NCBI GenBank assembly: GCA_035299085.1
Contig: DATGXG010000026.1
Span: 10,568-74,567 of the forward strand
Length of the DNA stretch: 64,000 nt
Reading direction: 5' to 3'
Source: Bacteroidales bacterium
GTDB lineage: Bacteria > Bacteroidota > Bacteroidia > Bacteroidales > UBA10428
The position numbers were made by a program, and so were the translations under genes. Shown one piece after another: positions 19,805-53,080 of the stretch; position 1 is the stretch's first letter; each line of letters starts with the position of its first letter. The notes beneath the pieces are model-generated. The model searched no databases. It had not been told where the DNA came from and was given only the letters and a program-made list of their open reading frames with translations.

Positions 19805-19930
19805 ATGAAATCGTTTGAATGAATCGTTTGAATGAAATCGTTTGAGTAACTTCTTTCAAACTCTTTTTCAAACTCTTTTTCAAACTTCTTTCAAACCTTT
19901 TCTTTAAACAGCGAAGCGTTCAAACTTCTT
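19805..19930. repeat. Composite tandem-repeat element A: 3 x ATGA(A)ATCGTTTGA followed by 4 x T(C)TTT(T)TCAAAC, plus degenerate tail copies
   Basis: Seen directly. Left array 19805..19845, right array 19851..19896. Tail copies are CTTTAAAC at 19902..19909 and GTTCAAAC at 19918..19925. The GTTTGAA core of the left units is the reverse complement of the TTCAAAC core of the right units. The element fills the gap between convergent genes. Confidence 0.85.
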
Positions 19931-39208: not shown

Positions 39209-39331
39209 GTGACTAGTGACTGGTGACTGGTGACTGGTGACTGGTGAAGGCCGGGGCTATAGGTATCCGGTATCCAGTATTCAGTATCCAGTATCCAGTA
39301 TCCGGCATCCGGCATCCGGTATCTTTTTTTT
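39209..39331. repeat. Composite tandem-repeat element D: about 5.5 x GTGACTG, spacer AGGCCGGGGCTATAG, about 8.7 x GTATCCR, then T8
   Basis: Seen directly. Heptamer array 1 at 39209..39247, spacer 39248..39262, heptamer array 2 at 39263..39323, T-run 39324..39331. ACTGG in array 1 is complementary to CCAGT in array 2. This gives 5-bp helices separated by 2x2 mismatches. Confidence 0.85.
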
Positions 39332-40470: not shown

Positions 40471-40658
40471 AAATGGTTCCAAATAGTTCCAAATAGTTCC
40501 AAATGGTTCCAAAGTGGTTTAAACGTGGTTCCAAATGGTTCCAAATGGCTCCAAAGTGGTTTAAACGTGGTTCCAAATGGTTCCAACAAGGTAACCTTGA
40601 AACAACCTTGAAACAACCTTGAAACAACCTTGAAACAACTTTGAAACAACTTTGAAAC
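40471..40658. repeat. Composite tandem-repeat element E: decamer array AAATGGTTCC (with a 42-nt higher-order duplication) followed by 6 x AAC(C/T)TTGAAAC
   Basis: Seen directly. Decamer-based array 40471..40584, containing two 42-nt super-units at 40501..40542 and 40543..40584. 11-mer array 40593..40658. Together they fill the whole convergent gap between the AI-2E gene and the cyclase gene. Confidence 0.85.
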
Positions 40659-40664
40659 AAATTT

Positions 40665-44181: not shown

Positions 44182-44237
44182 CTTACGAAGTCATTTAATT
44201 TCATTTTTTTTCATTTATTTTGCGCAAAATTATTTTT

Positions 44238-44798
44238 ATGGGTAAAGTATCGGATATATCCAAAGGCACGTTTGTAAGATATAACGGCGAAATTTCAATT
44301 GTTCTTGAATACGAACACCGCACTCCGGGTAACTTAAGGGCGTTTTACCAGGTTAAAATGCGTAACCTCAAATCCGGCAGGTTAATCGAACAACGGTTTC
44401 GTCCCGATGATGAAATGGAAATTGTTAGAGTTCATTTTAAAGAACAGCAATTCCTTTATATAGACGGAACGAACGTGGTGGTTATGGATAATGAAACCTA
44501 CGATCAGCTTCATATACCCAGGGAAACAATAGGCGAGGGTATTGACCTCTTAAAGGAAGGTGCCAATATTAAAGTTTACTTTGACGGTGAAGAACCCATA
44601 TTTGCTGAATTGCCGGTATCCGTTGAAATGGAAGTGACCTATACAGAACCCGGCATGAAAGGTGATACTGCAACCCGTACCCTGAAAACCGCCACCATTG
44701 AAACCGGTGCCCAGGTGAAAGTTCCCCTCTTTATCAACATCGGTGACCGGATCAAGATTGACACCAGGACCGGTGATTATATTGAGAGGGTCAGATAG
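44238..44798 (+). CDS. efp: Translation elongation factor P (atypical loop tip)
   Basis: 186 aa from MGKVSDISKGTFVRYNGE. Three-domain EF-P pattern with C-terminal VTYTEPGMKGDTAT...VKVPLFINIGDRIKIDTRTGDYIERV. The loop reads HRTPGNLRAF instead of the usual KPGKG. Confidence 0.9.
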   Translation: MGKVSDISKGTFVRYNGEISIVLEYEHRTPGNLRAFYQVKMRNLKSGRLIEQRFRPDDEMEIVRVHFKEQQFLYIDGTNVVVMDNETYDQLHIPRETIGEGIDLLKEGANIKVYFDGEEPIFAELPVSVEMEVTYTEPGMKGDTATRTLKTATIETGAQVKVPLFINIGDRIKIDTRTGDYIERVR

Positions 44799-44803
44799 TT
44801 TTT

Positions 44804-44897
44804 AGTTTCATGTTGTTTCATATGTTTCAAATTGTTTCAAATTGTTCTGAAACTACTTTGAAACTAAATGAAACCATATGAAACAACTTTGAAACAT
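44804..44897. repeat. Composite tandem-repeat element F: 5 x GTTTCA-containing units, then 5 x TGAAAC-containing units, forming a long imperfect hairpin
   Basis: Seen directly. GTTGTTTCATATG (44812..44824) pairs perfectly with CATATGAAACAAC (44875..44887). Inner GTTTCA/TGAAAC blocks also pair. The element lies between convergent efp and fabI. Confidence 0.85.
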
Positions 44898-44900
44898 TCT

Positions 44901-45731
44901 TCAAGGGCATTCCTTAAACGACTTATCATATTGAGTCATTGCCCTCTCACTCATACCCATACTGCTGAAACCACCGTCGTGGAACAAATTCTGCATCGTT
45001 ACCTTGCGGGTGAGATCGGAAAAGAGCGTAATACAATAATCGGCGCAATCCTCTGCAGACGCATTCCCCAGGGGTGACATCCTTTCCGTGAAATCGATGA
45101 GTGAATCAAATCCGAACACTCCGCTACCGGCTGTTGTAAGGGTGGGCGATTGTGAAATGGTATTGATCCTTATTTTCTTCTCACGTCCGTAAATGTAACC
45201 GAAGCTGCGCGCAATGGATTCAAGCAGGGCCTTGGCATCGGCCATGTCGTTGTATCCGAACAAGGTACGCTGGGCAGCAACATAAGACAACCCGACTATT
45301 GAACCCCAGTCGTTTATGGCGTCCATTTTACGGCAGATCTGGATTACCTTGTGGAACGAAAGAGCAGATATATCAAGTGTTTTTAAATAGAAATCGTAAT
45401 TAATATTATCATAGGGAATTCCTTTTCTTACGTTGGGTGACATACCAATTGAATGCAGCACAAAGTCGAATTTACCGCCGAAAAATTCCATCGATTTACT
45501 GACGAGGTTTTCAAGGTCTTCCGTGCTTGTTGCATCGGCAGGCACAACAATGCTGTTGGTGGCTGCAGCCAGTTCATTAACTTCACCAAGTCTCATGGCT
45601 ACGGGTGTATTTGTGAGAACAATCCGTGCACCTTCTGCATGGGCTTTTTCAGCGACCTTCCATGCTATTGATCTGTCATTCAGGGCTCCGAAAATAATGC
45701 CCGTTTTTCCTTTCAGCAGATTATAAGCCAT
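44901..45731 (-). CDS. fabI: Enoyl-[acyl-carrier-protein] reductase (NADH), FabI type
   Basis: 276 aa. N-terminal GKTGIIFGALNDRSIAW and the catalytic Y-x6-K context (YNDMADAK) of the FabI SDR subfamily. Confidence 0.85.
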   Translation of the reverse strand: MAYNLLKGKTGIIFGALNDRSIAWKVAEKAHAEGARIVLTNTPVAMRLGEVNELAAATNSIVVPADATSTEDLENLVSKSMEFFGGKFDFVLHSIGMSPNVRKGIPYDNINYDFYLKTLDISALSFHKVIQICRKMDAINDWGSIVGLSYVAAQRTLFGYNDMADAKALLESIARSFGYIYGREKKIRINTISQSPTLTTAGSGVFGFDSLIDFTERMSPLGNASAEDCADYCITLFSDLTRKVTMQNLFHDGGFSSMGMSERAMTQYDKSFKECP

Positions 45732-52827: not shown

Positions 52828-53080
52828 ACGTCATTGCGAGTAAGAACACCTTTTTAAAGATCACCCGGTGAAATGACAACATATTTACACAGAGGTTCAC
52901 AGAGGCACCACAGAGGTTCACAGAGAAAAAATCTGTTTTCTCAGTGGTTCTCTGTGTCTTCTCAGTGGTTCTCTGTGTAATAATGGTGAGGAAAAACAAA
53001 TCGTCATTAGTAGGAGCATGACTGAAATATGGATTTAGTATTGCTTCGCCTCCGCAAGAACCCGTGGCTCGCAATGACGT
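52828..53080. repeat. Inverted-repeat-bounded element G (253 nt): termini ACGTCATTGCGAG / CTCGCAATGACGT enclosing CACAGAG / CTCTGTG arrays
   Basis: Seen directly. 13-nt perfect terminal inverted repeats at 52828..52840 and 53068..53080. Inside, 4 x CACAGAG (52888..52924) face 2 x CTCAGTGGTTCTCTGTG (52940..52977). ATTGCTTCGCC at 53040..53050 resembles a motif in element H. Confidence 0.75.

Follow-up and report, generated by a model that had tools for sequence, protein, structure and literature searches.

The convergent genes efp and fabI of an uncultured Bacteroidales bacterium are separated, stop codon to stop codon, by 102 nucleotides (nt), and this gap is filled by an inverted pair of short tandem arrays that we call element F (Table 1). 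The gap lies in a 64,000-nt stretch of DNA that was analyzed as a whole and is referred to below as the window; the host genome, G000, comprises 5.26 Mb in 67 contigs. F has units of 9 to 11 nt with a GTTTCA core and belongs to the intergenic class of long simple sequence repeats (LSSR) and short tandemly repeated repetitive (STRR) sequences. An initial annotation of the window had singled F out as an imperfect hairpin of five GTTTCA units facing five TGAAAC units. In this study, we investigated the folding of F, its occurrence in relatives, and its relationship to the other arrays of the genome. The best explanation that we found, and one that we hold to be probable, is that F is an STRR/LSSR-type inverted pair of short tandem arrays that originated at the DNA level, with a putative consequence in RNA, where it would form a long 3' stem.

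Table 1. Coordinates of element F, its flanking genes, and related features (window positions unless a contig is given)
Feature	Position	Strand	Description
efp (elongation factor P)	44220–44798	+	Left flank; TAG stop codon at 44796–44798; from the list of open reading frames (ORFs), with Pfam EFP_N/EFP/Elong-fact-P_C on the identical Logan gene
F left arm, G/T-rich	44805–44846		GTTTCA at 44805, 44815, 44824, and 44834, then truncated GTT(C); spacers TGTT, TAT, AATT, AATT
F apex of fold-back	44847–44850		CTGA loop closed by GTT/AAC; from minimum free energy structures
F right arm, A/C-rich	44848–44895		TGAAAC at 44848, 44859, 44869, 44879, and 44890
F perfect block	44812–44824 with 44875–44887		GTTGTTTCATATG paired with CATATGAAACAAC; 13 bp
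fabI (enoyl-ACP reductase)	44901–45731	−	Right flank; stop codon at 44901–44903; from the ORF list, with Pfam adh_short/adh_short_C2 on the identical Logan gene
Element E	40471–40660		(AAATGGTTCC)x11, then (AACCTTGAAAC)x6 (40593–40660); another convergent gap; GTTYCA/TGRAAC unit family, as in F
Other convergent GTTTCA-then-TGRAAC gaps, stop codon to stop codon	C45:47746–47849; C14:167467–167645		
PF05635 genes	C39:41850–42251; C59:5002–5352; C25:14789–15184; C39:22714–23091; C45:198709–199068		Arm units GTAATCG, AGACTATT, GTTCCA-type, GGGGAGAA, and GTAGGCT
PF13366 genes (L251–L254)	C38:120662–121012; C52:3567–3917; C39:19121–19471; C37:26810–27157		

Structure and folding of element F

F spans positions 44805 to 44895, beginning 6 nt past the efp stop codon and finishing 5 nt short of that of fabI, and the ORF list bears out its place between the two convergent genes. 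At the 1.19 GTTTCA or TGAAAC matches per kb found across the genome, these 91 nt should contain 0.11 matches, and they contain nine (Poisson P = 5e-15). All five TGAAAC units of the right arm are present, spaced 11, 10, 10, and 11 nt apart (mean, 10.5 nt), but the left arm holds only four complete GTTTCA units, spaced 10, 9, and 10 nt apart, and a truncated GTTC, so the five-to-five layout of the initial annotation is correct for the right arm alone. Each unit carries an AAA/TTT tract. The perfect 13-bp block that had been reported between the arms was recovered, and the claimed kinship with element E, another element of the window, stands as well, its second array being of the same unit family. 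Assemblies of two sequencing runs in Logan are 100% identical across F (SRR5823602, 3,831 nt compared; SRR5823597, a 1,054-nt contig). Scans of genomes and metagenomes yielded no closer strain; from the same species, only these two Logan contigs were found, and they are identical.

The folding calculations agree with the earlier view that the stem is long, and they show it to be strong on both RNA strands and as single-stranded DNA. As RNA, F folds at −35.4 kcal/mol on the plus strand (z = −5.2) and −34.7 kcal/mol on the minus strand (z = −5.8), and as single-stranded DNA it folds at −25.9 kcal/mol (z = −5.8); none of 200 shuffled sequences reached its folding energy. The stem comprises 35 to 36 pairs, all of them Watson-Crick (25 to 26 A-T, 10 G-C, and no G-U), and the arms are identical at 37 of 48 positions once one is reverse-complemented. 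At 35 bp, the stem indeed exceeds the 5 to 14 bp of an ordinary terminator. What did not hold is the impression that F is singular or unusually strong: with −0.34 kcal/mol per nt, F matches the median energy density of the convergent gaps of G000, 42% of which are more negative, and F is one instance of a genome-wide repeat class.

If the arrays had been selected as RNA, the transcribed strand of co-directional gaps would be expected to fold better than its complement by virtue of G-U pairs. Across the co-directional gaps of the genome, however, the sense and antisense strands are equally stable (70:72), also among the strongest folders (20:18 and 13:9). F follows the strand-symmetric rule of the whole array class of G000. 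The lack of G-U pairs in F, its near-equal energy on the two strands, and the lack of a genome-wide sense advantage together point to the DNA level.

The efp-fabI gap in related genomes

We compared the efp-fabI gap across 14 congeneric genomes and five additional metagenome contigs, which provided roughly 20 distinct congeneric gaps. A repeat hairpin is absent in about 15 of these, and about a dozen are tiny (4 to 22 nt); in G001 and G019, the gap is TAGTTTTTCA, i.e., two stop codons and four T residues. Three loci (L005, L007, and L008) have gaps of 130 to 140 nt with a canonical hairpin and T-run. The gap of G020 (L017) contains an 86-nt hairpin of inverted heptamer-like repeats, and that of the metagenome contig Ga0105101_10007383 (L151) contains eight (T)AGTTTCAGR units followed by five TGAAAA/TGGAAC/TGAAAC units. 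The L151 hairpin resembles F in core and order and differs from it in spacers and counts, and F aligns slightly better to its reverse complement. Conservation of the architecture, which the initial annotation had raised, is therefore partial: it extends to L151 with the same cores and to G020 with another unit, but not to the majority of congeners. Since most congeners lack F, this comparison shows it to be dispensable for efp and fabI.

A tree of four proteins (UvrB C-terminus, Efp, FabI, and RecN C-terminus; 843 columns) places G000, L151, and G003 in one clade with a support of 97, with L151 nearest to G000 at 89.8% identity. The third member, G003, has the 11-nt stop-to-stop sequence TAGCCGGATCA, with 5 nt between the stop codons. 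Because G003 belongs to this clade and lacks the element, a single origin followed by loss is as parsimonious as two origins, and a nucleotide tree addressing one versus two origins of the F and L151 elements returned an unresolved topology. In distant relatives, different heptamer arrays occur right after the efp stop codon, namely, GACAAGT then GGTAATT in L160/L161 (Ga0105101_10001273, Ga0105100_10002290) and CAATTGT in L162 (Ga0265327_10000935), so that the 3' flank of efp has been colonized more than once, each time by other unit families.

Tests for terminators, known RNAs, and mobile elements

Two scans found no terminator-like site on either strand of the efp-fabI gap of G000. F has no G+C-rich stem and no U-tract on either strand, which rules out the identity of a canonical terminator, and its flanks are arranged in the opposite way to those of a terminator: a T-run precedes the stem on its 5' side, and the 3' arm is rich in A. 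The Bacteroidetes −7 motif (TAnnTTTG) was not found in the gap. A search of F against Rfam gave no family at its gathering score; apart from the best match, CRISPR-DR49 (RF01362), the hits were generic hairpins, including microRNA precursors. The identity of a CRISPR repeat was rejected, as that match reached 30 bits against a gathering score of 41 and F has no spacers.

A BLAST search of F against G000 found no second copy, the best other match being 47 nt at 89% identity. Comparison of the empty site TAGTTTTTCA with the filled site, in which the boundaries were checked, revealed no target-site duplication, and F has neither conserved termini nor a conserved loop. The absence of a second copy and of a target duplication indicates that F is not a discrete copy of the type of a miniature inverted-repeat transposable element (MITE) or of a hairpin of repetitive extragenic palindromic (REP) sequences (REPIN): it shows neither the near-identical palindrome copies of REP/REPIN sequences nor the terminal inverted repeats with target-site duplication of MITEs. 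We also looked for a link to REP-associated tyrosine transposases (RAYTs). None of the six Y1_Tnp (RAYT-like) matches in G000 is flanked by GTTTCA or other short-repeat arrays, and this link was rejected. Three of the six, on C5, C23, and C38, have G+C-rich REP-type palindromes on their flanks. These three genes (C5:6900–7346, C23:50004–50450, and C38:36700–37161), with palindromes such as CACCGGCTTTCAGCCGGCGC and AACCACTCCGTGGTT, constitute a separate REP/RAYT-like system. A link to the PF13366 (GxxExxY/PDDEXK_3) nuclease was likewise rejected, as its genes are bracketed by other word repeats and not by GTTTCA; all four of them are bracketed by inverted repeats of 30 to 65 nt made of words such as CGCAGAG and CACGAA.

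Element F as a member of a genome-wide array class

Genes of G000 were called crudely as longest ORFs, which gave 4,148 ORFs and a coding fraction of 91.5%. Tandem Repeats Finder detected 1,322 arrays, which were merged to 900 loci, 73% of them intergenic. Periods of 7 (319 arrays) and 8 (230 arrays) are the most common, while periods of 10 and 11 account for 72 and 59 arrays, and more than 100 unit families are represented. Arrays are densest in convergent gaps (2.4 per kb), followed by co-directional (1.6) and divergent (0.57) gaps, and the mean number of array loci per gap is 0.36 for convergent versus 0.10 for divergent gaps (p = 3e-24). Inverted pairing is a general property of these arrays, in that their 120-nt flanks contain 1,598 reverse-complement 6-mers of the unit, compared with 271 to 397 for two control word sets. 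Eighty-two array-rich gaps have folds of −0.3 kcal/mol per nt or stronger, and these are more frequent among convergent (40 of 78) than among co-directional (38 of 145) gaps (p = 2e-4).

F has the features of this class. Its four and five tandem units with a period of 9 to 11 nt lie in noncoding DNA, where class members have at least three units of 6 to 11 nt; its two arrays are complementary and convergent, with the 5' end of the G-rich strand beside the flanking ORF; and the arrays start 6 and 5 nt from the ORF ends, against a genome median of 4 nt. Turnover of unit number and sequence between related genomes is also seen, with 8 + 5 units in L151 and none in most congeners. The exception is the unit, which is 9 to 11 nt rather than the heptanucleotide of classical STRR sequences. 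Arrays with a GTTTCA core are found at about 20 further loci in G000, element E among them, and three more gaps, two of them convergent, have the GTTTCA-then-TGRAAC layout.

The unit families are patchily distributed across the genus. Among its 35 species, the 11-nt variant TTGAAACAACY was found in G000 only, and the pattern of three GTTTCA-N3-5 units is abundant in G000, G014, G045, G010, and G022 and rare or absent elsewhere; GTTTCA arrays are present in about 5 to 8 of the 35 species. Sister species have 9 to 26 arrays per 100 kb, with periods of 7 to 8 and mostly other units; the 7- to 8-nt signature is absent in three genomes of other families. The unit families thus resemble a common library that each species amplifies in its own way. 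Certain array loci have persisted for long; an example from the GTTYCA family is the resistance-nodulation-division (RND) efflux cluster C25:6769–23094 (locus L250; two AcrB, HlyD, and OEP), in which nearly every intercistronic gap has such arrays. The compound arrays of this locus are of the GGAATGAA, GGTTCCAAA, and CCTTGAAACAA types.

Polarity of the arrays

In 75 of the 82 hairpin-type gaps, the first arm has more G than C and the second arm more C than G (p = 2e-15), and the first arm is G+T-rich in 71 of them. F conforms to this rule: its left arm has G over C and T over A, and its right arm is complementary. As an inverted repeat reads alike on both strands, this polarity belongs to the hairpin itself and is independent of gene direction. 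The ratio of G-over-C to C-over-G arrays shifts from 37:3 in the left third to 5:42 in the right third of convergent gaps, from 107:23 to 10:71 in co-directional gaps, and from 11:2 to 3:9 in divergent gaps. Single arrays follow the rule as well (odds ratio, 20; p = 4e-20), and gaps with two arrays have the order G-then-C in 56 cases and C-then-G in 2. Arrays after stop codons, at a median distance of 4 nt, have G over C on the sense strand (203:51), and arrays before start codons have C over G (107:43, including arrays absorbed by the ORF caller). The G/T-rich strand is therefore directed, 5' to 3', away from the flanking gene and into the gap, so that two facing arrays form a hairpin. In 80-kb samples of eight sister species, the polarity was replicated (27:10; p = 0.008).

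Several candidate causes of the rule were rejected. A filter against stop codons fails because the polarity persists (86:16) in arrays with equal stop-codon content on both strands. An ORF-calling artifact at gene starts fails because only 16 arrays lie inside the 5' ends of ORFs and the rule still holds. Directional growth was also rejected, there being no gradient of unit homogeneity along the arrays. In co-directional gaps of the whole genome, the purine-rich arrays AAGGAGT, AAGGAATG, and AAAGAATG occur exclusively on the transcribed strand (8:0, 6:0, and 5:0), and AACAGACT (29:8) and AGCATCC (3:15) also show a family-specific strand bias.

PF05635 genes within inverted arrays

PF05635 is the 23S rRNA intervening-sequence protein family, a four-helix bundle; Avd proteins from diversity-generating retroelements are also members of this family. 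G000 has five PF05635 genes, and every one is located in the loop between two inverted arrays, of which the G-rich arm comes first and the unit differs from gene to gene (Table 1). Only 8 of the 4,148 ORFs are bracketed by complementary arrays, and four of these are PF05635 genes (p = 3e-11). The arms around C25:14789–15184 are of the GTTYCA family of F, and G014 and G010 have this cassette as well. F itself has a loop of 4 nt with no ORF in it. In Coxiella, the ORF homologous to these genes is enclosed by a 28-bp stem that contains tandem heptamers and is cut by RNase III (PMC4990558). By analogy, this suggests that F-type stems may be RNase III substrates and that F could be a cargo-less relative of the PF05635 cassettes.

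Relationship to known repeat systems

The closest counterparts of the F class are the heptamers GGGAATC of Xanthomonas and GGGGA(T/C)T of Nostoc described by Rehm et al. in 2015, which form 70 to 75 convergent inverted pairs per genome (PMC4692102). These heptamers almost always have the ORF closest to them on their 5' side, whatever its orientation, and downstream of ORFs they are on the coding strand, 0 to 50 bp past the stop codon (PMC4692102); the polarity rule is thus already published for them. Like them, the F class consists of intergenic arrays, often convergent pairs able to form a stem-loop or cruciform (PMC4692102), that have the 5' end of the G-rich strand beside the nearest ORF, usually a few nt from the stop codon, and that vary in length between species but tend to keep their type, be it a single array or an inverted pair. 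Unlike them, F comes from a different phylum and has A/T-rich units of 9 to 11 nt without G-runs, and hence no quadruplex potential, and in place of one dominant heptamer G000 has more than 100 unit families.

Other repeats share some of these properties. Cyanobacterial STRR sequences include a hairpin-forming array between hupS and hupL, and transcript stabilization or translational coupling has been put forward as their role (as summarized in PMC2670836). F is like the STRR sequences of that account in being a hairpin-capable set of short tandem repeats in intergenic DNA, but their units are 7 bp and the hupSL case lies inside an operon, whereas F has units of 9 to 11 nt and lies between convergent genes. 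LSSR sequences are described in Mrazek et al. (2007), as cited in PMC4679880. Direct repeats of the heptamer TAACTGA are known from Beggiatoaceae, cyanobacteria, and a few Bacteroidetes (PMC4679880); they resemble the F class in being abundant intergenic arrays of short units with a sporadic phylogeny and strain-specific paths, but they are mostly direct, just upstream of start codons, with only one inverted case, and their unit is unlike that of F (PMC4679880). The 23S rRNA intervening sequences with an S23p/PF05635 ORF in Coxiella burnetii and Leptospira have, like F, a long stem of terminal inverted repeats that includes tandem short repeats (PMC4990558). Their stem is cut by RNase III. F differs in having no ORF in its loop and in lying outside an rRNA gene. 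With the REP, bacterial interspersed mosaic element (BIME), and REPIN-RAYT sequences of Proteobacteria, F has in common that it is extragenic and hairpin forming; both kinds of repeat occur preferentially at the 3' ends of genes and in convergent gaps, and REP elements are thought to stabilize upstream mRNA (PMC3116915). REPs, however, are discrete conserved palindromes of ~20 to 40 nt with many near-identical copies and a tie to RAYTs, and F consists of tandem units with no second copy and no RAYT link. Finally, a bidirectional intrinsic (Rho-independent) terminator is also a hairpin between convergent genes, but it differs from F in its G+C-rich stem of 5 to 14 bp (35 bp in F), its 3' U-tract, and its 5' A-tract.

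Origin and possible role of element F

The pattern of gaps in the genus suggests a starting state of 4 to 20 nt between the efp and fabI stop codons, inside which F would have grown by DNA-level processes. Likely candidates are slippage during replication or repair synthesis and copying between the arms. F can be explained without invoking selection for a particular function in RNA or in protein binding. Read-through transcripts of either gene would nevertheless contain a 35-bp A-U-rich duplex starting 6 nt past the stop codon, and the likeliest effect of such a 3' stem would be to hinder 3' exonucleases or to be cut by RNase III, rather than to cause intrinsic termination. Such an effect has been suggested for the STRR hairpins of cyanobacteria and demonstrated for the stems of 23S rRNA intervening sequences that carry repeats. 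With regard to host factors, a search over 41 genomes found no bona fide SbcD in G000 or in most of the genus; scores above the cutoff were limited to G001, G019, and G023, with split matches. Full-length SbcD was found in 6 of 16 outgroup genera, and as it is missing in many outgroups as well, its loss could be at most permissive for long palindromes. Ku and nonhomologous end joining were rejected as the genus-wide cause of the arrays, as Ku is found in just 3 of 25 congeners.

Several observations weigh against an origin by DNA-level turnover without selection. L151, a member of the three-member clade of G000, has a hairpin with the same core between its efp and fabI genes. RNA of the efp-sense strand folds 6 to 15 kcal/mol better than antisense RNA in both L151 and L017; the L151 gap sequence alone gives −44.3 kcal/mol for the efp-sense strand and −29.1 kcal/mol for the other. 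Same-family arrays are present at orthologous RND efflux junctions in three species, G000, G014 (C4), and G010 (C11), whose proteins are only 65 to 73% identical, and this persistence could mean selection over neutral turnover. The unit number of F is unchanged between the two runs that contain this strain. Canonical terminators are rarer in array-rich gaps, both convergent (10% versus 37%; p = 5e-6) and co-directional (3% versus 14%; p = 9e-5); this depletion could reflect functional substitution, although it is confounded by the scant other DNA in array-rich gaps. Moreover, a DNA-level origin as we propose it leaves the G/T-first rule without a mechanism.

Some of these points are equally the case for a selected RNA element, that is, a bidirectional transcription barrier or 3'-end stabilizer for the convergent efp and fabI mRNAs that replaces the canonical bidirectional terminator of other species. 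F is located exactly between the stop codons of the two genes, with a folding energy of about −35 kcal/mol on either strand, the same gap has a canonical hairpin and T-run in L005, L007, and L008, and the scarcity of canonical terminators in array-rich gaps (10% against 37%) fits such a replacement, as do the excess of hairpin-type array gaps in convergent (40/78) over co-directional (38/145) positions (p = 2e-4) and the retained architecture in L151, where the efp-sense RNA has a stability advantage of 15 kcal/mol over the antisense RNA. We nevertheless consider this explanation rather unlikely. F has no U-tract on either strand and flanks opposite to those of a terminator, about a dozen congeneric gaps of 4 to 22 nt do without any structure, the sense-strand advantage is absent genome-wide, and the polarity rule is just as valid at gene starts, where a function at the 3' end offers no explanation for it. 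A small nonautonomous mobile element (a MITE, a REPIN, or a cargo-less intervening sequence), inserted whole and mobilized in trans by, e.g., a RAYT-type transposase or a PF05635 protein, would account for the presence and absence of the element in this gap across species, for the occurrence of its unit family at more than 20 loci with a patchy distribution in the genus, for the slightly better alignment of F to the reverse complement of the L151 element, and for the GTTYCA arms around the PF05635 gene C25:14789–15184, given that 5/5 PF05635 genes lie inside inverted arrays. Such an insertion is improbable in light of the missing second copy (47 nt at 89% being the best other match), the missing target-site duplication, conserved termini, and conserved loop, the G+C-rich REP-type palindromes, and not arrays, that flank RAYT-like genes, and the disproportion between more than 100 unit families and only 5 PF05635 genes.

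The spacing of the core about once per helical turn (mean of 10.5 nt in the right arm; 10, 9, and 10 nt in the left arm) and the AAA/TTT tract in each unit would suit phased binding sites for a DNA-binding protein or intrinsically bent DNA. We give this idea little credence, as the far more common 7- and 8-nt units show the same architecture and polarity and cannot be helically phased, the spacers are not conserved, F is absent in most congeners, and no candidate binding protein was found. That palindromes and tandem repeats are prone to misassembly in short-read metagenome-assembled genomes brings up an assembly artifact, either a chimeric palindromic join or collapsed repeats. The base-for-base match of two independent Logan assemblies from two runs makes this explanation practically untenable; in addition, F is shorter than a typical read, lies in conserved synteny, and has a related element on an unrelated metagenome contig (L151).

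An origin of F as an inverted array pair at the DNA level could be extended to the polarity rule, although we regard the extension as speculative and doubtful. The rule, to which F and about 90% of the array hairpins of G000 conform at gene starts and stops, may record an undescribed DNA-level process that builds hairpins from both flanks inward, PF05635 genes may encode a trans-acting partner of it, and F would then be a cargo-less member. One candidate for such a process would be repair synthesis that is prone to slippage and proceeds from both 3' ends of a break, with a geometry like that of head-to-head fused telomeres.

By itself, F matters little, and the array class to which it belongs is of more importance. 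About one in three convergent gene gaps of the genus is occupied by its arrays, and the class obeys a strict, unexplained polarity rule that has also been reported in Proteobacteria and cyanobacteria. The arrays are, in addition, tied to the 23S rRNA intervening-sequence protein family. An account of the array origin and of the G/T-first order would explain a feature that is widespread in the intergenic DNA of bacteria. In practical terms, annotation of F-type elements as terminators or small RNAs should be avoided, and they are likely sites of assembly error and of strain-level length variation.

Further arrays in the window and the genome

The window contains several further arrays. (GTGACTG)x5.6 is followed by (GGTATCC)x8.9 at 39209–39323, and (CACAGAGGTT)x3.7 by a CTCTGTG-type array at 52888–52978; a TTTCAAACTCTT-type array is at 19805–19909, and the uvrB-efp gap contains (TCATTTATTT)x3 at 44191–44221. 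Elsewhere in the genome, an ORF at C65:3320–4140, nitroreductase-like by eye only, has a complete hairpin on either side. These hairpins consist of (AATGTGCY)n, a conserved loop of ~30 nt (GATTCTCCATAGTTACATCATT), and (AGCACATT)n, and in this octamer family the loop is conserved along with the arms.

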